From: a virus
IMG/VR virus record: IMGVR_UViG_3300034355_001150
Span: 25,767 to 89,766 of that record
Length of the DNA stretch: 64,000 bases
Strand: one strand, 5' to 3'
This document shows, piece by piece, positions 9,578 through 60,790 of this stretch. Positions within the stretch are counted from its first letter, which is position 1; every line of letters begins with the position of its first letter. A program made the translations under genes and the position numbers. Under the pieces are notes generated by a model that saw only the letters and a list, made by a program, of their open reading frames with translations, had not been told where the DNA came from and ran no database searches.

Positions 9578-11161
9578 ATGTCAGCTTTTGAACAGCTAAC
9601 AGTGGGGTCGGCGGCGCTACCGCCGTCGGGCTCTACCGCATATGGTGTGTCTAACCAAAACAATGCAAATATGTTTCTACCGAATAGCGTTGCTAATTTC
9701 AACAACTTGCTGCCGCTCACTGGTGATTTTTGTTGGGAGATGTGGTGCTCCATAGACGGCCTTGGTGGACAGATGTTCAGTTTTGGCAATTTGCCTGGTT
9801 ATCAGTTTGGTGTTAGTTTTTATCAACCTGGAGACGGTACAGCGGCATTGTCATTCCTAGTGGGCGGCGGGCAAGGACCGGATACCTACTACTATGCTCC
9901 AGCAAGTAACTACGCAGGAGCAGGATGGATGCATCTTGCTTTTGCTCGCAGCGGAACAACAGTGAGCACATGGGTCAATGGGGTGTTATCAGCACGACTA
10001 TCTGGCTTCACTGGTACAATTGATTCTTCTGTTTCTACGACCTTATGGATATTTGGTGGTCCAGTTGGCGACCGAGACGAGACTTATGGTTATAGCACGT
10101 CCGGCAGCTGGCGTAATCTAAGATATGTCATCGGTGATTCTGTGTATGGCACTAGTAATTCGTTTGTCCCGCCCCCTGTAAGTGAAAATATACCGGTTAT
10201 CACCGGGACCCAGTATATTTGGTGGTTGAATCCTACAAGCGACATTCCGGATCATAGCACTTTTAACTATGATCCTCGTACTCCTGATTATACTGCGGAT
10301 GCAGCATGGTTGTGGACTAGTGGAACTGGTGCATCAAACGGTACCCAGCCAGCTAAGATGCCGTTCGTATTCCCAGGCGGTGACCCTGCGTTTCCGATTA
10401 CTAATTACGGACAGATTTTGGGTAGAGGGAGTTTCACAAACATGGGTACGGCACCTAACCAGCCTATTATCACTAGCGTCGGTCCCGCTGTTCCTGGTTT
10501 TTGGGCCAACACTGTGGGCGATTTTACAGCGACGGGCACTAATGTTCGCATATACAACGCTGGAGCACAAACGCTTTCACCTGGTCAACAGAGTTGCATT
10601 TATATCCTATATTTCTATGTCCCTGGTAACATAACCAACGAATGCAAAAATTTATTAGTAACAGAAGCAGCAAACGGATTTGTGCTTAACATTGGTAGAA
10701 CTGGATACGGATTAGATTGGGTATCTATTGAAACGTACGAAGGCACTGAGTTGGCATATGGTGCGCACGTATGGGCTCGTAACGCTTGGAATTATTTGGT
10801 AGTACAGCGGCTGTGTCAACCATTCTACTCCGCTTACAACTTTGCTGTTTGGGGCGGATGGGCTGGTGCCAGTATGGTTCCCAAGATACCAATGTATGAC
10901 GCTGGATTCGCATCCTATTCGTTTGCAGGCAGCACCCAACCTTTCTCTATAGGATGTAAAGCTGGGTCAAGCGTGTCGTGTCAATTGTATCTCAGTGAGA
11001 TTTGGACGTGGATCGGTAATTACGCACCAGAATTCTATGACTTTGATGCTCCGTTTATATCTCAACAGACGGTCGCTCCATTTGTTAACTACGCCGATGC
11101 TGCCCTTGGTATGATCTTTGACGGAGCAAACGGCAGTACTACATTTAATCAGTTATTATAA
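9578..11161 (+). CDS. LamG/concanavalin-A-like domain virion protein (527 aa, probably two lectin domains)
   Basis: TGDFCWEMW, WMHLAFARSGTTVSTWVNG, WRNLRY and terminal FDGANGSTTF motifs typical of phage LamG-like domains. Starts 2 nt after the fibre gene stop. Confidence 0.7.
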   Translation: MSAFEQLTVGSAALPPSGSTAYGVSNQNNANMFLPNSVANFNNLLPLTGDFCWEMWCSIDGLGGQMFSFGNLPGYQFGVSFYQPGDGTAALSFLVGGGQGPDTYYYAPASNYAGAGWMHLAFARSGTTVSTWVNGVLSARLSGFTGTIDSSVSTTLWIFGGPVGDRDETYGYSTSGSWRNLRYVIGDSVYGTSNSFVPPPVSENIPVITGTQYIWWLNPTSDIPDHSTFNYDPRTPDYTADAAWLWTSGTGASNGTQPAKMPFVFPGGDPAFPITNYGQILGRGSFTNMGTAPNQPIITSVGPAVPGFWANTVGDFTATGTNVRIYNAGAQTLSPGQQSCIYILYFYVPGNITNECKNLLVTEAANGFVLNIGRTGYGLDWVSIETYEGTELAYGAHVWARNAWNYLVVQRLCQPFYSAYNFAVWGGWAGASMVPKIPMYDAGFASYSFAGSTQPFSIGCKAGSSVSCQLYLSEIWTWIGNYAPEFYDFDAPFISQQTVAPFVNYADAALGMIFDGANGSTTFNQLL

Positions 11162-11162
11162 T

Positions 11163-11912
11163 ATGAATCCCAATTACTTTTACGACCTAAAATATATCAG
11201 TCCATATCGGTTTTACATCTTTGAGTATTCAAAGTTGGACCCTGAACAGAAGGTGGATTTTTCTGTTTATTACGACGAGGGTATGATAGAGGCAGGCTTC
11301 TTTAATGATGAGAGTCTTGCTCTGCTTGACCAATACCGTGCTGTCCCTGCTCCCTACTCTTCGTACCCAAGTTTGGCACTTGAGTTTGATTGTGGTTCTA
11401 AAACTCCTGCATTCTTTACCAGACTACAGTTTAGAGCATTCAGAGCAGAAGAGACAATGGCTGGGTTGGCGTCTATTCTTGGTGTTTCTACACCTGCACT
11501 ACCCGTAGTCAATTCTCCAGCGGAATACGACGAAGTAGGCATTTATCCCGAAAGAAATCGCAATCAATTCAAGTTTGCCGTTCGCGGTCATGGCCAAGCG
11601 TTGAAGGATTTTGCTGACCTTCACGGCTGTAATAACACCGATGTAATAATGAGCGTGGATCATCCACCAATGAACACAGCGGTCAACTTCAATTGGGATG
11701 GCGAAAGGATGTCACATTTCACATTCTCTGCACCAGATTTAGGAGTGAATGACGAATGGGTTCAGCATGTCACTGAACACAATGCCGCTAAATGTGCTGA
11801 GTATTTTGGCGAGCGTGAATATAATATTCAACGTGTTGTGAAAATGTCAATAGGCACAGATTTGCCCGATGGGTACTTGAAGGCTTACTTCATTGTTAGA
11901 GCATCAAAATAA
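11163..11912 (+). CDS. Hypothetical protein (probable start MNPNYF at 11163)
   Basis: Fills the gap between LamG genes. ATG lies immediately after the preceding stop. No family recognised. Confidence 0.65.
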   Translation: MNPNYFYDLKYISPYRFYIFEYSKLDPEQKVDFSVYYDEGMIEAGFFNDESLALLDQYRAVPAPYSSYPSLALEFDCGSKTPAFFTRLQFRAFRAEETMAGLASILGVSTPALPVVNSPAEYDEVGIYPERNRNQFKFAVRGHGQALKDFADLHGCNNTDVIMSVDHPPMNTAVNFNWDGERMSHFTFSAPDLGVNDEWVQHVTEHNAAKCAEYFGEREYNIQRVVKMSIGTDLPDGYLKAYFIVRASK

Positions 11913-14141: not shown

Positions 14142-15071
14142 ATGAAAATTAGCGATGTAATAAGAAATATCAGTGATATGGTAGACTCCACTCCAACCGA
14201 AAGGTCAAGTGGTGACAATACCAGCAAATTCACGGCATTTACTGGCGATTTAACTTTAGTTGAACTACCAGATGGTGAGGATGAAAAACGAAGAGAACCC
14301 GGCAAGATGCCTTCGGGCAATGATGAAATGCCGGAAGACCTTTATCTTCCACCGCTTCAATTAAAATCTGAACTATTGAAGAAAGCAGTAGATGTTGAAA
14401 ACGTTTTTGATGACGGCACTCCGGCTGTACGCTACAACGAAGAATATGGTGATGAGGGATGGCATGGCGATGATAACGATCATAGTTATATCGGTGCTCC
14501 TCAAACTGCTGAAGAAGTGGATGGACAACCTGATCCTAATGAAACCACCGATGGTTCTGATTCTGGCAAGCGTTCTAAACCAAGAGCAGATTCCGATGAT
14601 TCGGACGATGATGATTCGGACGACGATGAAGAACGTGAACGCGCTGATGAATCTTTGAATCGCATCCTTGAACTTGCTTTAGTAAAGGAATCAAACTATC
14701 ATGATTCTAAGTTCGTGGACAGGACTGAACGTCTTGAACGTCTAATGGCTCTTGATAAACGCACAGGTGAGTCAATTGATCGTATTCTTGAACTGGCTCT
14801 GGTAAAGGAATCAAACTATCACGATTCTATCGTTGAGTGGAGCGAGGATGACAACGAGGATCCGGATGTTGCCAAAGCAGACAGAGAGTTATCTCGCTTA
14901 GGCAAGACCTCTATCAAAGCAGCCAACATAGACACTGACAAAGATAAACTTGACGACAAGGAGGAAGAGCAGTTAGACGAGGAAGTCAAGGAAATGAATC
15001 GTATGCGTGAACTGGCCGGGTTGAACCCAGCAGTATTGTTCGCGCTCGGCGACGATGATTACCCGGTGTAA
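14142..15071 (+). CDS. Highly acidic protein, possibly a head-internal/core protein
   Basis: D/E-rich. Internal 120-bp-spaced duplication (RILELALVKESNYHDS twice) and a C-terminal RMRELAGL motif. Late box upstream. Confidence 0.6.
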   Translation: MKISDVIRNISDMVDSTPTERSSGDNTSKFTAFTGDLTLVELPDGEDEKRREPGKMPSGNDEMPEDLYLPPLQLKSELLKKAVDVENVFDDGTPAVRYNEEYGDEGWHGDDNDHSYIGAPQTAEEVDGQPDPNETTDGSDSGKRSKPRADSDDSDDDDSDDDEERERADESLNRILELALVKESNYHDSKFVDRTERLERLMALDKRTGESIDRILELALVKESNYHDSIVEWSEDDNEDPDVAKADRELSRLGKTSIKAANIDTDKDKLDDKEEEQLDEEVKEMNRMRELAGLNPAVLFALGDDDYPV

Positions 15072-15085
15072 TACCACCGCTTGAC

Positions 15086-15120
15086 AAATATTAAAAGCCC
15101 CTTCGGGGCTTTTAATATTT
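15086..15120. terminator. Bidirectional intrinsic terminator
   Basis: AAATATTAAAAGCCC-CTTCG-GGGCTTTTAATATTT, a perfect inverted repeat between convergent genes. Confidence 0.85.
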
Positions 15121-15127
15121 TACACCG

Positions 15128-16240
15128 CTAAATTTGTGGCGGCCAATTCTTTTTACGGTTACCAGCAATCTCCCCAGTTAACCATCTGGGATCATCTTTG
15201 GTTGTCCTAAACATATTACCTTGCAAATCCTTCACAACCATAGTATCTTTGGCGTGTCCAACCATTTCTCCTGAAATCCATCTTGGATCATCTGCGTTGA
15301 TGTGGTGAATGACGCCATGTTCATCTCTTGCTTTTATGGTACCATTGGTGGTACTAACTAACTCACCCGATAGCCGTCGTGGATCATCTATTGCTATATG
15401 GTGGACTTTGCCGTTCTGATCTTTAGCAGGCATCATGCCTTTAGTGGTGCCGAATAGTTCTCCTGATAACCATTCAGGGTCATCTTTGCCGACGACACGA
15501 ACCCTTCCGTTTTTATCTCTTGTCGCCACTTTTCCAGTCGAGATACTAACCAATTCACCCGACAAACGCCGAGGATCATCCATACTGATACGATAAATGT
15601 TTCCGTCTTTATCTTTAGCTGGCATCATACCTTTATTGATTCCGACTAATTCACCCGACAAACGCCGAGGATCATCCATATTGATATGATAAATGTTTCC
15701 ATCTTTATCTTTAGCTGGCATCATTCCTTTAAAAATATGCATAATATTACCAGTCTGTATTCTCGGGTCATCTATTGATACTCGCATTAAGTTTCCGTCT
15801 TTATCTTTAGCTGGCATCATACCTTTATTGATTCCGACTAATTCACCCGACAAACGACGTGGATCATCAAGTGATACAAAATAGACAAACCCATCTTTAT
15901 CACACACAGATACCTTTCCAGTAACATAACACTTGTAACAATCAGATTTATTTAACCACTTATCATCGGCAACCACTTTAAGTCGACGCAAAACTTTATG
16001 CTCCCACAGTACTGCGTCATCTGGCGTAGAGAAGCCTTGGCGTCTGATCTGAATGATATCAGGATCACCGTGTTGTTCTCGGAACTTGGCTACATACTTG
16101 CTCGACGTCTGGTATTTAACCCAGAATAAGCCGGGATCGGCATCTTTTCCATACTTGCTTCCATAATACCAAACATTTAGCCAGGACCAGCCGATCAGGT
16201 AGGTATAGTAAATAGGTGTTTTTAATTTTTTGGTTGCCAT
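15128..16240 (-). CDS. Putative free-standing homing endonuclease (GIY-YIG/Seg-like N-terminus plus eight 32-aa repeats)
   Basis: YYTYLIGW...WYYGSKY...YQTSSKYV...WEHKVL...WLNK resembles a GIY-YIG-type domain. The C-terminus has eight G-x-x-x-(A/V)KDKDG..DDPRxLSGEL repeats. The gene is antisense within a late structural block. Confidence 0.65.
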   Translation of the reverse strand: MATKKLKTPIYYTYLIGWSWLNVWYYGSKYGKDADPGLFWVKYQTSSKYVAKFREQHGDPDIIQIRRQGFSTPDDAVLWEHKVLRRLKVVADDKWLNKSDCYKCYVTGKVSVCDKDGFVYFVSLDDPRRLSGELVGINKGMMPAKDKDGNLMRVSIDDPRIQTGNIMHIFKGMMPAKDKDGNIYHINMDDPRRLSGELVGINKGMMPAKDKDGNIYRISMDDPRRLSGELVSISTGKVATRDKNGRVRVVGKDDPEWLSGELFGTTKGMMPAKDQNGKVHHIAIDDPRRLSGELVSTTNGTIKARDEHGVIHHINADDPRWISGEMVGHAKDTMVVKDLQGNMFRTTKDDPRWLTGEIAGNRKKNWPPQI

Positions 16241-26627: not shown

Positions 26628-26658
26628 GATTTTTCCCCTGATTGAGTTGATGGAGAGT

Positions 26659-26686
26659 ATTATACAGAAAGATTTAAGATTGTCAA
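26659..26686 (-). promoter_or_regulatory. Early sigma70-type promoter TTGACA-16-TATAAT
   Basis: - strand reads TTGACAATCTTAAATCTTTCTGTATAAT. Member of a repeated promoter family. Confidence 0.8.
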
Positions 26687-27089: not shown

Positions 27090-27117
27090 GTTTATTTCTC
27101 TCGTTGGTATGGCGAGT

Positions 27118-27145
27118 ATTATACAGAATGATTTGAGAATGTCAA
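27118..27145 (-). promoter_or_regulatory. Early promoter TTGACA-16-TATAAT
   Basis: TTGACATTCTCAAATCATTCTGTATAAT on the - strand. Confidence 0.8.
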
Positions 27146-29119: not shown

Positions 29120-30013
29120 TCATATAATAATGAAGTATTTATCTGAAACCTCAAATTTCTTCAGAACAAGGCGCTCACCTTTCGCATTAGCTTCACCAAT
29201 CATACCTTCATCTGCCATCAGATTCACCAAGGCATGAACATACTTATCATTAAGGCGAAATTTCTTCTTCAGAATGTCATTAGTGATCTTCTTTTGGTGC
29301 AAAGTAAAGGTAGCTACCTTAAACCAAATCTTATCATCAGCATAACCTAACGTATGAACGTATGCCTTTATAAGAAGATTTCTATACTGATCGTCTTTTC
29401 TTTTATTCTTGATCCAATCATTGTAAAAATCAAGTGCCATTGCAATCAGAATAGTGCTTACAACGATAGTACCGATAATACCACCCAGATGAAGGTAAAC
29501 AAATTTAAGAATTATCACAATAAGAGCTACAAGAAGCACTGGAACAAAAAATGATGCAGCAGCGCCAACCAGTCCACCCACTATCATATCTGATATAAAT
29601 CCACCACCGTGGTGTGCATCAGCAAAAACGCCATAAATCATTCCGATAATTGTAAAAGGAATAATAGTAATTCCAGTGAATATACTACCCTGAGGAACCC
29701 ACTCTCTGTTTGATGTAGAAGAAGAAACACTTGAGGTAATTGACGAAACAGAATTGGAAACACTTGAGGTAATTGACGAAACAGAATTGGAAACACTTGA
29801 CGATGAACCTGCTAATGAAGATTTTGATCTCGAAGCGATATCGGAAAGTCCTTCAGAGGTAAGATCATAGCCTTGCATAAGAAAAATTGATCCTTTGCCA
29901 TAAGTAGCTTCGGCAATAGATGTTGCCATGCTCGTATTAAGAGCATCAATTTTTACATTAAAGGGATATTGACCATGAAGACGAATGGTAGCAAGAAATG
30001 AAGACATTGACAT
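29120..30013 (-). CDS. Membrane protein with Ser-rich linker and C-terminal FtsK-gamma-like winged helix
   Basis: Several hydrophobic segments, a 33-bp tandem repeat (~29724-29800), and C-terminal KVATFTLHQKKITNDILKKKFRLNDKYVHALVNLMADEGMIGEANAKGERLVL. Confidence 0.6.
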   Translation of the reverse strand: MSMSSFLATIRLHGQYPFNVKIDALNTSMATSIAEATYGKGSIFLMQGYDLTSEGLSDIASRSKSSLAGSSSSVSNSVSSITSSVSNSVSSITSSVSSSTSNREWVPQGSIFTGITIIPFTIIGMIYGVFADAHHGGGFISDMIVGGLVGAAASFFVPVLLVALIVIILKFVYLHLGGIIGTIVVSTILIAMALDFYNDWIKNKRKDDQYRNLLIKAYVHTLGYADDKIWFKVATFTLHQKKITNDILKKKFRLNDKYVHALVNLMADEGMIGEANAKGERLVLKKFEVSDKYFIII

Positions 30014-30046
30014 GATTTTTATCTCTCGTTGGTTGGTATGGAGAGT

Positions 30047-30074
30047 ATTATACAGAAAGATTCAGGAAAGTCAA
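30047..30074 (-). promoter_or_regulatory. Early promoter TTGACT-16-TATAAT
   Basis: TTGACTTTCCTGAATCTTTCTGTATAAT. The downstream leader resembles those at 26659 and 27118. Confidence 0.75.
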
Positions 30075-30254
30075 ATGTTTTTTATGAGAGAAGGATGAAC
30101 GCAATAGTTCATTATAATGGAGAAATTGTGGTAGTAGGTTCAGAGATGAGCGTAGCTCATCTGATGATTGGTTAGCACCAATCATCTTTTTTCTTACACG
30201 ATTAAAAGATAAATTCTTGTTTAATAAGAATATTATTGTTGAATAATGATGGAG

Positions 30255-30870
30255 GATAGTGAGATTTGAGATTACCTCACTTCGGGAGGATTGTGCTGGG
30301 TTTATGACAGCCCCCTTTCAGGGGACAATCATAATCTTCGGTTGGGACCGGAGGGATACAACAGGTAGGATTTTTTTGAACTCTTGGACGGGGGGCTCGC
30401 ACCCAACCCCGGTACCTACTGCGACTTTCTTATTAAGGGATTCCCTGGCGTTAATTTGGAATTCCCAGTCCTTCATCAAATAATGGTATTACTTGAAACA
30501 AGTTCAATAGACGATTGATTACTCAACCTCAAACCTATTACAGTGACGCAAAATTCCTTCTCCATAAGGAGAGGATTTTTAAAGGCATCCAGACACGCGA
30601 TGGACTGGGTAGTGCGCCAAGGCTTGGATGCGACCTCCAAAATTACGTTCCTCCACACAGCAGAGAGGCATTCCGTTGCCGAATTATCAGAGGAGCCGGC
30701 TATCTCCAAAAATCGCAGTGGGTGCCAGTTTTGTTTCCCACTCTGGCAAGTGGTTTGTAACGCTAGTTTAAAGGGCACCCGGTTACCTGGAGTCCACGGA
30801 GTAAGCTCTACCGCGAGGCGACGGTAATGATAATCAGATTATCTGCTTGCCCCGTCTGAACAAGCACTTT
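30255..30870 (-). ncRNA. Candidate large structured non-coding RNA (~600 nt), family unassigned
   Basis: Sits in a ~900-bp gap with no credible ORF and is visibly more GC-rich than its flanks. It has many hairpins, a long-range helix (30415-30428 with 30709-30722) and two promoters immediately upstream. Boundaries are approximate. Confidence 0.6.
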
Positions 30871-30911
30871 TATTTATACACAATACTACGCTTGTTCAGG
30901 AATCACGTCAA
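30871..30911 (-). promoter_or_regulatory. Tandem sigma70 (TTGACG-17-TAGTAT) and T4-late (TATAAATA) promoters
   Basis: -35 at 30906-30911, -10 at 30883-30888, TATAAATA at 30871-30878. The -10 and late box are flanked by the inverted repeat CTGAACAAGC (30856-30865 / 30890-30899). Confidence 0.7.
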
Positions 30912-30920
30912 GTAAAAAGG

Positions 30921-31304
30921 TCAAATGCCACGTATTTTCTTAATCTCAGTTTTCATGTCATCAACCGATATTTTTCCATCTACGTATGATATCAATAGCG
31001 ATTTAAATTCCTTGATAAATTTTTTAATCTCAGTGCTTTCATAAGTATCCAAGGCATTCTTAACATACTTTGCGATTATTGTGGGATTGTTTCCGATAGA
31101 ATATGTTGCAACATGTATTCTATTCTTAAACACCTTCATTCTACATTTGGTGTGGGGTAATTCGTCGGGTTGAGTGCGAGTCCATAGCGTGATGTTACCG
31201 GGAATACCAGTAACATCAGCAATCAGATTGCCCATTTCGGCAATGAATGTATCTTCTCGTAGATTCATTCTGAGCTTATTATGAGGTAATTCAGAAATTT
31301 TCAT
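30921..31304 (-). CDS. Hypothetical protein, paralog of 31301..31642
   Basis: Shares the EMxN...(T/S)G(I/L)PxNI...H..R(M/I)KV motif with its neighbour. ATGA overlap. Confidence 0.7.
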   Translation of the reverse strand: MKISELPHNKLRMNLREDTFIAEMGNLIADVTGIPGNITLWTRTQPDELPHTKCRMKVFKNRIHVATYSIGNNPTIIAKYVKNALDTYESTEIKKFIKEFKSLLISYVDGKISVDDMKTEIKKIRGI

Positions 31305-31642
31305 AATGAACGTAGTTCTTGAACCATTTCTGTGGTATCAATCTCGTCATTCCAATATTTCATCAATACATCGTAGTTTTTGTTGATGTATTCCCTTAGT
31401 GCATTTAATACATCATTGGTGAGTGTATCGTAACCGATTACATCATCCTGCGTGATGTTTCTTTTTAGTATAACGCTAACTGTTTCGTGTGGATTAAAAT
31501 TATCATCAGTGTTGGTCATAACCTTAATTCTCGGTCCGTGACGTTTATTCACGCTGCCGCCGCTACTGACATAAATGTTTACGGGCAATCCGGAAGTCCT
31601 TTTCCAGATATTGCTCATCTCAAATAGATCATCAACGAACAT
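31301..31642 (-). CDS. Hypothetical protein (DUF4160-like fold possible)
   Basis: EMSNIWKRTSGLPVNIYV...HGPRIKV...YINKNYDVLMKYWN. Confidence 0.7.
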   Translation of the reverse strand: MFVDDLFEMSNIWKRTSGLPVNIYVSSGGSVNKRHGPRIKVMTNTDDNFNPHETVSVILKRNITQDDVIGYDTLTNDVLNALREYINKNYDVLMKYWNDEIDTTEMVQELRSL

Positions 31643-31643
31643 T

Positions 31644-32234
31644 TCAGATACTATTTCTATCTACGATGATTTTATCAGCCAATCCATAGGCAACCGATTC
31701 TTCCGCTGACATAAATGTATCTCTGTCCATATCTCGTTCAAATTCTGCATAAGTTTTACCAGCAGAATTATGATTAACGTAGATATTAGTGAGTGTTTCT
31801 TTTACCTTCTGAATTTCTTTTGCTTGAATCTGAATATCAGATGCCATGCCGCTCGCACCACCGCTCGGTTGATGAATCATGTGCCTTGCATTGGGTAACA
31901 TAATTCGCTTACCCGGTGAACCAGCAGTAGCTAATAACGAACCCATACTACATGCCTGTCCAGTCACGATAGTAGATACATCGGGCTTGATGAATCGCAT
32001 AGTATCGTAGATTGCCATTCCAGCGGTTACTTCACCTCCACCAGAGTTGATATACATAAATATGTCGGTTTCTGTATCTTCGGCCTCTAAAAATAGCAAT
32101 TGAGCTACCACAACATGGCTCATTTCAGTGTGAATAGAACCATTTAAAAATATAATTCTTTCTTTCAATAGCCTGGAAAAAATATCATAACTTCGTTCAG
32201 AAGTGGCTGTTTTTTCTATTACAAATGGAATCAT
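31644..32234 (-). CDS. clpP: ATP-dependent Clp protease proteolytic subunit
   Basis: SYDIFSRLLKERIIFL, YINSGGG, GQACSMGS (catalytic Ser), MIHQPSGG and RDTFMSAEESVAYGLAD. Confidence 0.97.
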   Translation of the reverse strand: MIPFVIEKTATSERSYDIFSRLLKERIIFLNGSIHTEMSHVVVAQLLFLEAEDTETDIFMYINSGGGEVTAGMAIYDTMRFIKPDVSTIVTGQACSMGSLLATAGSPGKRIMLPNARHMIHQPSGGASGMASDIQIQAKEIQKVKETLTNIYVNHNSAGKTYAEFERDMDRDTFMSAEESVAYGLADKIIVDRNSI

Positions 32235-32645: not shown

Positions 32646-32889
32646 TTATTAGTGATAGTAGTAATTCACGATGATGATACACCGTTCCACTCAAGTATAT
32701 CACCAACAATCCGATGTTGACCAGAAAAATGTTGAAATCTCTCACTCGCCATGCCCACAACGCATACAACAATGCACCAAAATTACTGATGTAGATATTA
32801 AGTGGGGCTATCTGAAATGCAGTCAGAGTAGCCCCAATCAATGCAACAATCAAACCAAAATTTTTAATTACGCTATTAAGCATAATCAA
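32635..32889 (-). CDS. Small multi-pass membrane protein
   Basis: Three hydrophobic segments. Confidence 0.6.
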   Translation of the reverse strand: MIMLNSVIKNFGLIVALIGATLTAFQIAPLNIYISNFGALLYALWAWRVRDFNIFLVNIGLLVIYLSGTVYHHRELLLSLINEN

Positions 32890-33040
32890 AATCTTCTAAT
32901 GATGCTGCATAAGCATGTTCAAGAAAATCAATCTGCCATTGAATTTCTTGGAGAGATTCTACTGTGAGTTCTTCGGATTCAAATTGCTCATACAATGAAT
33001 TCAGTTCGGTCTTGATAGAAGCGTTGTCTGAAATAATCAT
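32876..33040 (-). CDS. Small acidic early protein (start MIISDNA)
   Basis: GGAG RBS, directly behind the promoter at 33077-33104. Confidence 0.55.
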   Translation of the reverse strand: MIISDNASIKTELNSLYEQFESEELTVESLQEIQWQIDFLEHAYAASLEDFDYA

Positions 33041-33076
33041 CTTAGGTTCTCCGTGGTTGGTGTTGATGATGGGTGA

Positions 33077-33104
33077 ATTATACACGCAAACCAAAAGATG
33101 TCAA
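33077..33104 (-). promoter_or_regulatory. Early promoter TTGACA-16-TATAAT
   Basis: TTGACATCTTTTGGTTTGCGTGTATAAT. Confidence 0.75.
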
Positions 33105-33110
33105 GCGTTT

Positions 33111-55883: not shown

Positions 55884-56696
55884 TTATTCTCCGTTAAAAA
55901 TTATTTTTGTCAATAAGTCTATGCCATCTATGGCATTCATTTGCATAGATATATCTTGTTTGCGTGATATATCCGGTTCATATAGGTTTATCCTAATCAA
56001 TTTGCTGGTTCTTTCTGCACCAAACCATCTAATAGATGGGATAGTTTTACCAGCCCCTATCTCAATTCCGACAATGTTTTTCTTATCAGATTCCCATTCG
56101 GTATATGATCTTTGTTGTTCGTCCACCCGATTGAAACAAAAAGCAGGATCATTGAACATCATTACTTTTGGTCTCAAATAGCTACCGCAATTTGGGCAGG
56201 TTGGTATATCTTTTTCGCTGGTCAGTACATCAGTAAAATTCGGCATAGGCCAATCTTCGCGTGTGCATTGATCAACACATTGAATATATCGCAAATTACC
56301 GTGAATTTCAAGCAATTTGTTTGAATCATATCCAGCCTTTAAAAAGTGACCATCAACATTGGATGTTACCGAGAATATATCCTTTCCTAATTCTTTAAGC
56401 CTCAGTAATTGTACATATCCCTTATGAGGAGTTAATGACATTCCGGTTATCAATCTGGTAATATAAAAGTTCCATGCTTCCAAAGGATGAATGGCAAATG
56501 CGTCGGCTGTAGCAAATTTCATGAAATTACTTTGCTCACTTGTCCATATTCCATCTTTTCCCCTAAAGTCCGGTATTCCAGAATCAACGCTCATACCCGC
56601 CCCAGATAGAATAACAATCCCATCTGCTTCATCAATCATCTTTTTGATTTGATTATCCAGCACAGCTTTCGCATTCTCCTTTACTAGCTTGAACAC
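55884..56696 (-). CDS. Sir2/sirtuin-family NAD-dependent deacylase
   Basis: GAGMSVDSGIPDFRG, TSNVDG, EIHG, Zn-binding Cys pairs, LRPKVMMF, IGAG and RIN motifs. The start may be ~56639. Confidence 0.92.
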   Translation of the reverse strand: MFKLVKENAKAVLDNQIKKMIDEADGIVILSGAGMSVDSGIPDFRGKDGIWTSEQSNFMKFATADAFAIHPLEAWNFYITRLITGMSLTPHKGYVQLLRLKELGKDIFSVTSNVDGHFLKAGYDSNKLLEIHGNLRYIQCVDQCTREDWPMPNFTDVLTSEKDIPTCPNCGSYLRPKVMMFNDPAFCFNRVDEQQRSYTEWESDKKNIVGIEIGAGKTIPSIRWFGAERTSKLIRINLYEPDISRKQDISMQMNAIDGIDLLTKIIFNGE

Positions 56697-57648
56697 CCGA
56701 TTCTGATCTAATATAATACAATGATTTAATCAACGGATCATTAAATGCCATCTGATGAACTTCTGAGATATATTCTTCTGATTCATCTGACGAGAAAAAT
56801 AGATTGATGGATTGCGCTTGGTCTATAAATTGCTGTCTTACTGAAGCTAATCTTATAATGACCTTTTGATCAATTTCAAATGCCGTTTTAAATACTTTTT
56901 TCTCTTCTTCGTTTAACCATTCAACATCTTGCACCGAGCCATTATGATTGATTACTTCGTTGATGTGCTTATCATCATAAATTCCTTTTTCCTTCAACAG
57001 TTCCAAAAATACCGGATTGATTCTGTTCATTTCTCCAGCAGCAGAACCTTGTACGTAGACATTTTTATAAACGGGTTCAATTCCCTGTGATACGCCTCCC
57101 ATAATTCCGGCTGTTGATAGCGTTGGTGCAACAGCCAATAGATGAGAATTTCTACGATTATATCCTCTGCACCATTCTGGTTCGCCAAATGCTTCTGCCA
57201 TCCATCGTGTTGCCTTTTCTGATTCTTCTTTAATTTTTTTGAAGATTTCTGCATTCTTAAAGTGAGCTTCTATTGATTCAAACGGAATCATATTTAATTG
57301 CAAATAGGTATGAAATCCCATTACGCCAAGTCCTAATGCTCTTGACTTTTCCGTGAACCTGACTGCTTTTTCTAAACCTTTTATTTTTTTACCAATAGAA
57401 ATAAACTCAGATGCGACACAGTCTAAGAATACAGAAGAAACAAAAATAGTATCGGTATCTTTCCATTCATCATACTTAGCTAAATTCAACGAAGATAATA
57501 CGCATGTATAGGTATGTTCATCATCGGAGAACAACGTGATCTCTGTGCAATTATGAACCAAAATGTCGTTTCCGAAGAAGTTATTATTGTCTTCTACTGT
57601 TATATCATAAACATCTTCTAGATAGTCAACCTCTTCAATTAATAGCAT
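56653..57648 (-). CDS. nrdA: Ribonucleotide reductase class Ia alpha, C-terminal fragment preceded by split-intein C-half
   Basis: VYDITVEDNNNFFGNDILVHN|CTEI, then CVLSSLN, RALGLG, AVAPT, DQAQS, SLYYIR and a C-terminal CESC. Confidence 0.95.
   Translation of the reverse strand: MLLIEEVDYLEDVYDITVEDNNNFFGNDILVHNCTEITLFSDDEHTYTCVLSSLNLAKYDEWKDTDTIFVSSVFLDCVASEFISIGKKIKGLEKAVRFTEKSRALGLGVMGFHTYLQLNMIPFESIEAHFKNAEIFKKIKEESEKATRWMAEAFGEPEWCRGYNRRNSHLLAVAPTLSTAGIMGGVSQGIEPVYKNVYVQGSAAGEMNRINPVFLELLKEKGIYDDKHINEVINHNGSVQDVEWLNEEEKKVFKTAFEIDQKVIIRLASVRQQFIDQAQSINLFFSSDESEEYISEVHQMAFNDPLIKSLYYIRSESGVQASKGECESCAG
57550..57648 (-). other. Split intein C-terminal half (33 aa)
   Basis: Block F VYDITV and block G HN, followed by +1 Cys. 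Confidence 0.9.
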
Positions 57649-58612
57649 CTAATACCTCTTTAACATTAATTTTGTTTCTCATTTTGTTATACCTATTGTA
57701 TTCTAAATTTAACTCTTTACAAACCGGCGAAATCAAATTGTTTTTAACATCACCATTAAACCTAAACCCACTTTTAGCACCGCCGCCGAGATTTGGAAAT
57801 TTTCTAAATTTGTGTTTTTCATCCCAAATCAACTTAATCAATTTTAATCCTGGCAATTCATTAAATTGGTATTTTTCGGCAATCACAGACGCAACCTTTA
57901 CGTAAAAATCATAGATTTCATCATCGGTTATTCCGCTGTATTTTGGGTTATTTGTTCCGGTTGTCTGATCATCTTTATTTGAAGCAGATACCCAATCTTC
58001 AATATTGTCCAAATCGTTCTTATTGCAATATCTTCCTTCTCCGGTTTTTTTATTATAAAATTTGTGTTTATTCTTTGAATGATGAACCCATTCACCCGAA
58101 ACGACTTTTGGGTGATTTTTTTCAACTGATCCAACTATTTCTCCGGTTAATACATCTTTTACTGGAAAAGTTCCTTTTCTTGATATTGATATTCTGTGTT
58201 TTCCTTCTTTTGTTTGCCACCCGTTAGTTTTACGAAAACTCGAAGAATTTTGCCTCATCCATGCATAAGAATTTCGTATTTTTCTATTTAAACAGGTTTT
58301 AATATTTTTCAATTTCTTTTTGCTGTTAAACCCGTTTATAACAAACTTAATAGCAATAAAATCACATCGTTCACCATAAGCTTTATATCTTATTAAATGC
58401 GCAAACAAATGTTCTTCTGGCAAAAGCGTAACTATATTATCTATGTTATTTGAACCCCCAACACTTTTTGGAATTATATGATGCCCCTCGACATATAATT
58501 CTAAATTATTTACTATTCGTAAATCTTTGGGGTTTCGTTTCCTTAACCGAGCAAAAGGGGTTGTTCTTTGACAATAATTGATAAATGTTTCATATAATTT
58601 AATATAATTCAT
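57635..58612 (-). CDS. Free-standing HNH homing endonuclease between the nrdA halves
   Basis: EGHHIIPKSVGGSN..DNIVTL.PEEH..AH motif. Confidence 0.88.
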   Translation of the reverse strand: MNYIKLYETFINYCQRTTPFARLRKRNPKDLRIVNNLELYVEGHHIIPKSVGGSNNIDNIVTLLPEEHLFAHLIRYKAYGERCDFIAIKFVINGFNSKKKLKNIKTCLNRKIRNSYAWMRQNSSSFRKTNGWQTKEGKHRISISRKGTFPVKDVLTGEIVGSVEKNHPKVVSGEWVHHSKNKHKFYNKKTGEGRYCNKNDLDNIEDWVSASNKDDQTTGTNNPKYSGITDDEIYDFYVKVASVIAEKYQFNELPGLKLIKLIWDEKHKFRKFPNLGGGAKSGFRFNGDVKNNLISPVCKELNLEYNRYNKMRNKINVKEVLDAIN

Positions 58613-58617
58613 GTTTT

Positions 58618-58651
58618 AATTCCTCTTCGTGTATTTATACGAAGAGGAATT
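58618..58651 (-). promoter_or_regulatory. RBS-sequestering hairpin containing late promoter TATAAATA
   Basis: AATTCCTCTTCGT-ATAAATAC-ACGAAGAGGAATT immediately upstream of the HNH ATG. Confidence 0.8.
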
Positions 58652-58664
58652 TCACTACATAAAA

Positions 58665-59789
58665 CTATAAAATTTTGAGTTCATCAGAAGTTGTCAAATT
58701 GCCAGCCTCAACATAACCTCTATTTTTAGTATAGATGAGATGACAAGGAGTACAAACTAAACTTTTGCCAGAAGTTTCATCTGTAATTTTAATCAATTTC
58801 GCATCTTTTTTCGTTAAAGCAAAATCAACAATTTTTTTCCATTCAATTTTGTTTGATTCTATATTAAACGACTTCGTTAATAACGGAATGCCATTATCTA
58901 AAAATAATCCAACAAGTTTGATGGGAAGTACAAATTCTTCCGACGATTCGTCCTCAATTTTTACTTGAACCAAAGTATTTCCGGTTACACAGAGATTACT
59001 CGCCTTTACTTTTAATCCATTATCTTTGTAACATTTGGGTGTCAGCTTGTTTACCTTGTCAACAAAAAAGAAATATCCCTTTCCGGTTACCATCTTGGTT
59101 TTCATAACCTTTTGATACCTTGAAATAGCTTTTTTATCGCCTGAGTTCAATCTCCTAATGAATTTATCAGTTATAACCCACCCGATATTACAATCATCTG
59201 GGCTTGAATTGAGGAAGTTAATGATCTCCCAAAAATCTTCATGATCAATTTCAATATATCCAGCCCATGCTCCACGCCTCGTGTTGCCCTGAGATATATC
59301 TCTGGACAATTGAACAAAGTCTTTCAATACAGGAAGAACACCAGATGCCTTTCCGCCAGATGAGATTTCTGTTCCTCTATGTCTGATTGCACCAAGATAC
59401 GAGCTTGTACCAAAACCGTTCTTGGATAACATTGCTATTTCTTTTTGAGTATCATAAAAGTCATACACACAATCATTGACAAAATTACCAGAGCAGCTTA
59501 CATTACATCCTCTATCGGTTCCCATGTTGGCGAGAATCGGAGTAGCACAAGATAGCCAACCATTCCAAATAACTGTATAAAATTTATGTTCCCAATACTC
59601 TGGATCATCAGTCCATTTAGCCGCACATTTGCTAATTCTACGAGCTACTGACTTAAAGTCCTTTTCTGTTTTAGTTGCGTATTTTGAAGAGAATAATTGC
59701 CACCCAGCGGTCGTAAACCAATCAGGTAAAACGCCTTCCTCTTGGAGACGTTTGCGTTCTTCGGATAGATCTTCGTAAATTGTCTTCAT
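58665..59789 (-). CDS. nrdA: Ribonucleotide reductase class Ia alpha, N-terminal fragment ending in split-intein N-half (start MKTIYED)
   Basis: ATPILAN, VSCS, SQGNTRRGA and SNL|CVTGNT. ATGA overlap with nrdB. Confidence 0.95.
   Translation of the reverse strand: MKTIYEDLSEERKRLQEEGVLPDWFTTAGWQLFSSKYATKTEKDFKSVARRISKCAAKWTDDPEYWEHKFYTVIWNGWLSCATPILANMGTDRGCNVSCSGNFVNDCVYDFYDTQKEIAMLSKNGFGTSSYLGAIRHRGTEISSGGKASGVLPVLKDFVQLSRDISQGNTRRGAWAGYIEIDHEDFWEIINFLNSSPDDCNIGWVITDKFIRRLNSGDKKAISRYQKVMKTKMVTGKGYFFFVDKVNKLTPKCYKDNGLKVKASNLCVTGNTLVQVKIEDESSEEFVLPIKLVGLFLDNGIPLLTKSFNIESNKIEWKKIVDFALTKKDAKLIKITDETSGKSLVCTPCHLIYTKNRGYVEAGNLTTSDELKIL
58668..58991 (-). other. Split intein N-terminal half (108 aa)
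   Basis: Block A CVTGNTLV and block B CTPCHLIYT..RGYVEAGNL...DEL, then stop. Confidence 0.9.
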
Positions 59790-60790
59790 GCCGCTTCCTC
59801 TACCGACCAATTGAATCCCTTCTCGTTCCAATCTCGCTTATATGAATTGCCAATTTTATAGAAAAAATCATGCAATTGAGGTGCGTTGATGTTTTTATAG
59901 AACCAAGTTTTGATTGGATTGTATTGAGGATTATAGTGTTTTTCAAATCCAAGTTGTTCTAAACAAAGATCAAGTCGATGCTGAATAAACGATTTTAGCT
60001 GATGGTCGGTAATTCCCTTGATATTGCCCTTCTCAAAAATCATATCTATAATTCTATCCTCGTGTTCTTTGATGTGTTCTACTGTTTCTAATAGGTCTGT
60101 GTTTAATTTCGTTATTTGTTCTTGTGATAATTCGCTTTCTGCCAACAGAGTTCTGAACAACCATGCTCCGGCAATAGAATGAAGATTCTCATCTCTGACG
60201 GAGAAGTTAATTCCGGCAGTAACGTTCACCAACTTGTTTTTTCCCTCTGATTGAAAATGCTTCAAGAAAGCAAATGATGAGTACAAGATAGCGCCTTCAA
60301 TCATTGAAAAAACAGCTAATGATTTCAGAATATCAATGATATTGTCAGAAGGTTTGGCGATTACCTTATTGATCCAATTTATTCTATTGAACAACACCGA
60401 ATCTTCAACATAAGAATTGTAGAATTCGTCTGTGTTCAATCCAAGAACTTCGTTTAGTTTGTTATAGAATGGTGCATGAACATTTAGCTCAAAAAAACTA
60501 AAACAGTTGCTCATTCGTTCAATATCTGGCCTGGGGAAAAGCCTTTTTATTTTTCCAGACCAATATTCTTTGCCTACTACCAATTCATATAACGTGAATA
60601 GCTTTAAGGTAGTAATTACTCCATGATACTCAGCATCAGTGAAATTGGTCTTCATATCATGAAGGTCCTTTTCCACCTCTATTTCATTGGGATGCCAAAA
60701 AATATCCATTTGTTGGTTTGCAAACTCAACCGCTTCGGGATAATCTATCGTGTATGTTGTTTTTTCTTGTAATAGTCTTGGTTTTTCCAT
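59786..60790 (-). CDS. nrdB: Ribonucleotide reductase class Ia beta subunit
   Basis: FWHPNEI, FELNVH..FY, EGAILYSSF and RDENLH diiron motifs. Confidence 0.93.
   Translation of the reverse strand: MEKPRLLQEKTTYTIDYPEAVEFANQQMDIFWHPNEIEVEKDLHDMKTNFTDAEYHGVITTLKLFTLYELVVGKEYWSGKIKRLFPRPDIERMSNCFSFFELNVHAPFYNKLNEVLGLNTDEFYNSYVEDSVLFNRINWINKVIAKPSDNIIDILKSLAVFSMIEGAILYSSFAFLKHFQSEGKNKLVNVTAGINFSVRDENLHSIAGAWLFRTLLAESELSQEQITKLNTDLLETVEHIKEHEDRIIDMIFEKGNIKGITDHQLKSFIQHRLDLCLEQLGFEKHYNPQYNPIKTWFYKNINAPQLHDFFYKIGNSYKRDWNEKGFNWSVEEAA

Follow-up and report, generated by a model that had tools for sequence, protein, structure and literature searches.

Genes and features of the locus

The window analysed here, a 64-kb stretch of viral DNA, belongs to an 89.8-kb IMG/VR virus record whose completeness is estimated at 27%, implying a jumbo phage of roughly 330 kb. 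Within a run of minus-strand genes lies a gene-free gap of 907 nt (30014-30920), bounded by the ORFs 29120-30013(-) and 30921-31304(-); its part 30275-30880 is referred to below as the core. The gap sits in a translation and protein-quality module (ClpP, with a GroEL gene nearby) in which related phages carry tRNA arrays or a tmRNA. The features of the locus are listed in the minus-strand direction.

31644-32234, minus strand: ClpP gene, upstream of the stretch
31301-31642, minus strand: small gene of 113 aa, upstream of the stretch, no Pfam hit
30921-31304, minus strand: small gene of 127 aa, directly upstream of the gap, no Pfam hit
30911-30883, minus strand: putative sigma-70-like promoter, TTGACG-17-TAGTAT, 9 of 12 positions matching
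30856-30865 and 30890-30899, no strand assigned: perfect 10-nt inverted repeat around the -10 box and the likely start
30871-30878, minus strand: sequence match to the "late box" TATAAATA
30610-30876, minus strand: GC-rich 5' arm (GC about 0.50) with interleaved UGCCAG/CUGGCA and AGUGGG/CCCACU pairings
30464-30609, minus strand: central domain of 146 nt with three hairpins closed off by an 8-bp helix (CCCAGUCC/GGACUGGG), predicted to form a four-way junction
30555-30575, minus strand: hairpin A, flanked by an A-run and a U-run and terminator-like in both directions
30275-30463, minus strand: GC-rich 3' arm with a GAAA-capped hairpin at 30310-30326
30014-30274, no strand assigned: hypervariable spacer with a hairpin at 30144-30162, a terminator on the plus strand at 30163-30186 and the early promoter that serves the downstream gene
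30074-30047, minus strand: that early promoter, TTGACT-16-TATAAT, with a repeated leader
29120-30013, minus strand: membrane protein gene with a weak FtsK-gamma match, downstream of the gap

A first-pass annotation of this DNA had proposed that the gap, described as non-coding and GC-richer than its flanks, encodes a large, ornate RNA with early and late promoters. Every sequence feature it listed was found at its place, and the gap proved to be both gene-free and GC-rich: GC content is 0.479 in the core and averages 0.399 over 600-nt windows of the record (z 2.1), and three other non-coding gaps found in the 89.8-kb record have a GC content of 0.35. Long GC-rich intergenic regions are reported to be enriched for structured RNAs (PMC8723152). 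The core is single-copy within the 89.8-kb record, itself an estimated 27% of the genome. The family of the 127-aa gene shares an invariant LW..QP.ELPH.K.R.KV.K motif and is present in 16 metagenome clusters.

A sigma-70-like promoter at 30911-30883 is plausible. The hexamers of the early promoter claimed in the annotation are unchanged in relatives while the spacer between them varies, with only spacer positions 30900 and 30905 affected among the changes listed; promoter-like sites do not exceed shuffled sequence (6 found versus 12.4). The late promoter did not survive scrutiny, as TATAAATA occurs at chance frequency (6 copies versus 7.06 expected, with 65 of 100 shuffles reaching 6), and nothing therefore suggests T4-type late promoters in this phage. 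The 10-nt inverted repeat described around the -10 box and TATAAATA is present.

Several signals read on the plus strand, namely a strong terminator at 30163-30186, promoter-like sites at 30304-30332 and 30456-30484, and a cUUCGg hairpin at 30275-30289 that reads best in that direction. The terminator scan found no minus-strand intrinsic terminator at the 3' end of the core. Downstream, within 30014-30095, an early promoter that recurs in the window (TTGACT-16-TGTATAAT) precedes the next gene and is followed by some 20 nt of conserved initial leader; further leader copies are located at 26650-26674 and 27103-27133, so that at least three minus-strand units are headed in this way. Many contigs pile up on the 35 nt of repeated promoter and leader at 30028-30062, which break metagenome assemblies; this repeated promoter probably marks the start of the next gene's own transcription. 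The interval 30100-30200 has two hairpins in tandem (30144-30162 and 30163-30186) with a plus-strand run of six T behind them, as well as TATAAT at 30113-30118; it may encode a small plus-strand RNA, some 70 nt long, that would converge on the candidate RNA discussed below. In relatives, the 3-nt loop of hairpin 30144-30162 is fully changed and its stem kept.

Conservation and coding potential

DNA resembling the stretch is present in lake and freshwater metagenomes of 13 studies, and the runs listed as matching include no RNA run. We compared contigs from four runs with 29500-31500; the difference counts per contig are complete, and the lists of sites are lower bounds. The core in run X9 differs at 4 of 373 nt on the 3' arm side (record 21) and at 4 of 313 nt on the 5' arm side (record 22), whereas the spacer in the same run (30033-30304, record 20) differs at 18 of 272 nt (6.6%) and carries a 19-nt deletion; gene 29120-30013 has 6 differences in 503 nt and a 33-nt indel. 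A contig of run X5 matches 30033-31042 with 25 differences before becoming unlike the window inside the upstream gene; among its listed differences, 15 lie left of 30275 and 4, plus one deletion, in the core. By these counts conservation of the core is close to that of coding sequence and exceeds that of its spacer 5-6 fold, and the contigs show it evolving as expected under purifying selection relative to that spacer. The conserved part ends near 30275, since the 3'-most hairpin of the annotation (30257-30282) is broken by changes in both X5 and X9.

One X9 contig joins 30359 directly to 30618, skipping 258 nt, and the depth of its flanks fits a second population, which suggests that the centre has been deleted or replaced in a natural variant. 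The whole central domain is absent or replaced in that variant.

The longest ORFs in the gap reach at most 100 aa. None of the seven gap ORFs matches PHROGs, and the sole Pfam listing among them (E 0.054) falls below its cutoff. Among 5.8 billion protein clusters there is no relative of the 100-aa ORF, against 4 and 16 relatives of the flanking genes 29120-30013 and 30921-31304. Natural 1-base deletions in the core, at 30371 (run X5) and 30708 (run X14), shift all reading frames. Two of the three substitutions among those listed for the 100-aa frame fall at second codon positions (read by hand), and codon-position GC over the stretch has no clear periodicity. A coding reading of the skipped 258-nt segment, which is of in-frame length, was set aside after the joined frames gave, by our own reading, no convincing protein. 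With no protein relatives, no clear codon periodicity and frame-breaking indels in its relatives, the stretch is non-coding, as had been claimed.

Searches for more distant homologues were made by distant and near DNA comparison with INPHARED phages, in IMG/VR via single flanking proteins and via an alignment of the downstream gene's relatives, in JGI metagenomes via the same alignment, in IMG/VR and JGI metagenomes with a degenerate DNA pattern of hairpin A, and with nhmmer, BLAST and a model of the central domain (R1) on 80 ClpP loci and on five related jumbo-phage records (four of them estimated 99-100% complete); all returned no relative, and as the searched sets may omit records of, or very near, the window's genome, these blanks say little on close kin. 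Relatives of the upstream gene led to one IMG/VR locus (L087), in which a methyltransferase-like gene follows directly with no gap. Other loci have gaps downstream of ClpP with short motifs in common, none of which the stretch shares. In Agrobacterium phage Atu_ph07, whose ClpP is the nearest among named phages (64%), no gap of this sort lies close to that gene. An antisense target search of the 89.8 kb gave only chance-level matches of at most 15 nt. No iterons were found in the stretch, and its direct repeats have no more than two short copies.

Folding of the core and comparison with known RNAs

The whole stretch folds better than its shuffles on the minus strand (z -3.70, 0 of 20 shuffles as stable) and not on the plus strand (z -0.87), which together with a core divergence of about 1% supports the view of a conserved and minus-strand-biased element. 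The 146-nt central domain reaches -49.1 kcal/mol on the minus strand (z -5.11, 0 of 200 shuffles), and its plus-strand z is -3.06 (1 of 200). The ends of this domain were chosen at a helix, which flatters z, and we added a control in which 7,982 windows of 146 nt were folded on both strands across the 64 kb. None of the 2,824 windows with a GC content of 0.37-0.43 reaches -49.1 kcal/mol, and the GC-corrected residual of the central domain is -3.5 sd. Three single differences are located inside the domain, two at unpaired sites and one changing a G-C pair to G.U.

Hairpin A is followed by four U on the minus strand and five on the plus strand, and the terminator scan flags it on the plus strand. 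We compared by hand the unaligned end of a divergent, low-depth contig of 188 nt from run X14 with 30548-30577. Seven letters differ in hairpin A and no pair is broken: the U-A pair of 30555 and 30575 becomes G.U, which pairs on the minus strand only, the C-G pair of 30562 and 30569 becomes U-A with pairing kept, and further changes fall within the loop at 30565-30567. As this comparison of one hairpin with one low-depth contig shows, hairpin A appears to be maintained by compensatory change that works on the minus strand, and the hairpin annotated at 30550-30579 is borne out in this form. A terminator hairpin would covary likewise. Covariation in the element as a whole comprises the two compensated pairs of hairpin A only, with no distant homologues found.

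The arms give a different picture. Fold z-scores are -0.89 on the minus and +0.65 on the plus strand for the 5' arm (30610-30876), -0.49 and -0.41 for the 3' arm (30275-30463), and -1.35 for 30548-30876(-). These GC-rich arms, about 75% of the core, thus fold no better than shuffles on either strand, and the "ornate" fold envisaged across the full 650 nt is not borne out. Sliding windows of 240 nt inside the core have z-scores from +0.3 to -2.1, compared with frequent values of -2 to -3.5 in neighbouring coding sequence. All of the interleaved (pseudoknot-like), GCATCCA, GGTTGGG and GAAA-capped pairings of the annotation are present in the sequence, and the minus strand has GNRA loops (GAAA, GUAA). 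Taken singly, the pairings do not stand out; exact complementarity in the long helices extends over only 7-8 bp, and a few cores of that length are expected per 650 nt by our own arithmetic. The long-range pairing 30404-30428/30709-30733 spans 25 nt at 76% complementarity, and the annotated long-range helix within it (30415-30428/30709-30722) is present but loses one strand in the 30359/30618 variant of run X9.

At least eight core variants could be placed on the predicted fold. Five of the eight listed are at predicted unpaired sites and one is a homopolymer deletion at a helix end. The variants at 30569 and 30386 convert G-C to G.U on the minus strand and would be C.A on the plus strand, the change at 30386 being also compatible with a plus-strand helix. 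One well-supported structured domain within a conserved, non-coding and minus-biased element is real.

Rfam 15 covariance models, applied to the 64 kb at gathering score, gave no matches; applied to 29950-31000 at E up to 10, they gave four chance-level hits (best E 0.7), all at or below 21.3 bits and below their cutoffs. No family matched, GOLLD, ROOL, OLE, HEARO, raiA, RNase P and group I/II introns included. Matches to "Polynucleobacter-1" (15 bits, E 1.2) and RatA (21 bits, E 6.6) were rejected as chance level. ARAGORN reported no tRNA or tmRNA genes in the window or in the whole record, and the earlier statement that the stretch has no tmRNA, RNase P or intron hallmarks agrees with these results.

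A tmRNA deserved a serious look given the ClpP context, in which relatives carry tRNA arrays and a tmRNA. Of 585 ClpP relatives in IMG/VR, 80 loci were kept and 48 of these scanned with ARAGORN; four of the 48 have tRNA arrays downstream of ClpP, and one has a permuted tmRNA (L056, IMGVR_UViG_3300017917_003016; positions 10888-11443, 556 nt), which scores 119 bits with Rfam and served as a positive control. L056 is a 202-kb jumbo-phage contig whose tmRNA is of the betaproteobacterial type, has a 29-residue tag and lies about 4.3 kb downstream of ClpP. The two loci are alike in an element of about 550 nt encoded on the ClpP strand a few kb downstream of that gene, and their ClpPs are 67% identical. 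In contrast to this tmRNA, the stretch has no T-arm or CCA acceptor, no tag frame and no ARAGORN or Rfam hit; six-frame translation shows no tag peptide with a hydrophobic or Ala-rich tail ahead of a stop, and a tmRNA was rejected.

Phage 121Q carries a large RNA in four copies, near 90.3, 192.8, 247.5 and 326.6 kb by self-comparison. From these four copies of one genome we built a profile and covariance models for the conserved 5' and middle domains (R2 and R3), which score 110-141 bits on the four copies and at most 6 bits on 29900-31100 with filters off; nhmmer with the 121Q profile found nothing on the stretch. Membership of the 121Q/RaK2-type jumbo-phage RNA was rejected on these scores, which come from models of one genome. 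Phage 121Q has four copies, and one copy of the present element was located in the 89.8-kb record, which is estimated 27% complete. In four freshwater relatives the hits of R2 and R3 were only marginal (per-genome E 0.01-0.5), and the window's own record had none.

GOLLD, ROOL and OLE are reported as large "ornate" RNAs often found in phages and prophages, and the known large phage-borne RNAs as forming RNA-only assemblies (Rfam; PMC12286853). The stretch resembles these three in being about 600 nt long, gene-free, GC-richer than its surroundings and part of a lake-water phage. Unlike them, it has no covariance match at E up to 10 and fold support for a quarter of its length, and it is known from one narrow lineage only.

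A candidate RNA gene and its rivals

What stands of the large ornate RNA with two promoters is a conserved non-coding RNA candidate with one structured domain and a sigma-70-like promoter; the structured arms and the late box fall away. We tentatively read 30275-30880 as the gene for a lineage-specific minus-strand non-coding RNA with a promoter at 30911-30883 and a predicted start near 30876, a reading to which we give slightly less than an even chance. Transcription would begin at about 30876 from this host-type (sigma-70-like) promoter, and hairpin A with its A-run and U-run may act as a leaky internal terminator. As hairpin A is terminator-like and no minus-strand terminator follows the core, we propose two forms, a short one of about 330 nt that would stretch between 30876 and about 30548, and one of about 600 nt that would read through hairpin A and end in the variable spacer. 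Early in infection the RNA may work in trans, binding proteins as a scaffold or decoy.

The main rival is that the gap is a composite regulatory spacer and not one RNA, hairpin A being a bidirectional terminator between convergent short transcripts, a minus transcript from 30883 and a plus transcript from about 30275 or from 30456-30484, with the remainder made up of leader, trailer and protein-binding DNA. Hairpin A does meet the terminator pattern on the plus strand and has four U after it on the minus strand, the promoter-like sites at 30304-30332 and 30456-30484 and the cUUCGg hairpin at 30275-30289 favour plus-strand transcription, and the arms have no fold signal. The resemblance of hairpin A to bidirectional intrinsic terminators extends to its GC-containing stem, its A-run and U-run flanks and its compensatory change. 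Unlike such terminators, however, it lies inside a helix-closed 146-nt domain, the 8-bp helix enclosing it in a fold far better than chance, and the conserved non-coding sequence goes on for some 270 nt past it. Its G.U states work only on the minus strand, and ordinary spacers are AT-rich (GC 0.35) and fast-varying (6.6% next door), in contrast to a GC content of 0.48 and a divergence of about 1% here. We consider the composite spacer unlikely, though the likeliest of the rivals.

Conservation of the GC-rich arms without a fold signal would also suit an element acting as DNA, such as a replication origin, a packaging or recombination site or a binding platform, at which the promoter only opens or primes. 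The palindromes around the promoter and the GGAATTCC-type palindromes are consistent with this, as are the contigs of relatives, which end or become dissimilar on either side in the manner of a mosaic joint. The compensated pairs and the G.U changes confined to one strand nevertheless point to RNA, there are no iterons or direct-repeat families beyond two short copies, and the GC skew has no genome-scale switch centred on the core, making a DNA-level element improbable. Marginally less probable again is that the stretch is left over from a decayed gene or from foreign DNA of higher GC content, and looks conserved only through recent spread among related phages. The GC content above the phage mean and the lack of distant homologues fit such a remnant, and X5 shares the core at about 99% while its upstream gene runs on unlike the window. 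Against it, no protein relic is detectable and no clear codon periodicity is seen, and the adjacent spacer on the same contigs has diverged by 6.6%, which beside a core at about 1% favours selection over recency.

If the gap does encode a minus-strand RNA, a bolder proposal can be built on it, which we rate as a minority prospect: the stretch would be the first representative of a new class of phage non-coding RNA some 600 nt long, with a swappable four-way-junction centre that folds independently, set between two GC-rich arms whose folding would depend entirely on tertiary or intermolecular contacts. Freshwater jumbo phages would make this RNA early, for the takeover of translation and proteostasis. 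GOLLD and ROOL, in their RNA-only assemblies, would offer a parallel for such arms. Structured RNAs of large size whose function is unknown are rare, and phages carry several of those described so far. A further one, if true, would add a case from uncultured freshwater jumbo phages with a clear setting (ClpP, chaperonins, and tRNA or tmRNA in relatives), and the stretch also shows natural modular variation. It is a candidate, with one lineage and one supported domain.

Three other regions of the window were noted in passing. Among the 146-nt windows of the 64 kb, 15009-15154 is the most stable once GC is corrected for (-63.9 kcal/mol, residual -5.1 sd); it lies between convergent genes and is probably a terminator that acts strongly in both directions. 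At 56653-59831 the large subunit of ribonucleotide reductase looks split, with a 388-aa ORF that matches only the first quarter of the barrel domain and is followed by more ORFs on the same strand; Rfam detects no intron in this region, and an intein, intron or homing-endonuclease insertion is possible. The interval 32650-33105 contains a plus-strand ORF of 98 aa that is probably spurious, small minus-strand ORFs and an early-type promoter (TTGACA-17-TATAAT), and folds at z -3.2.
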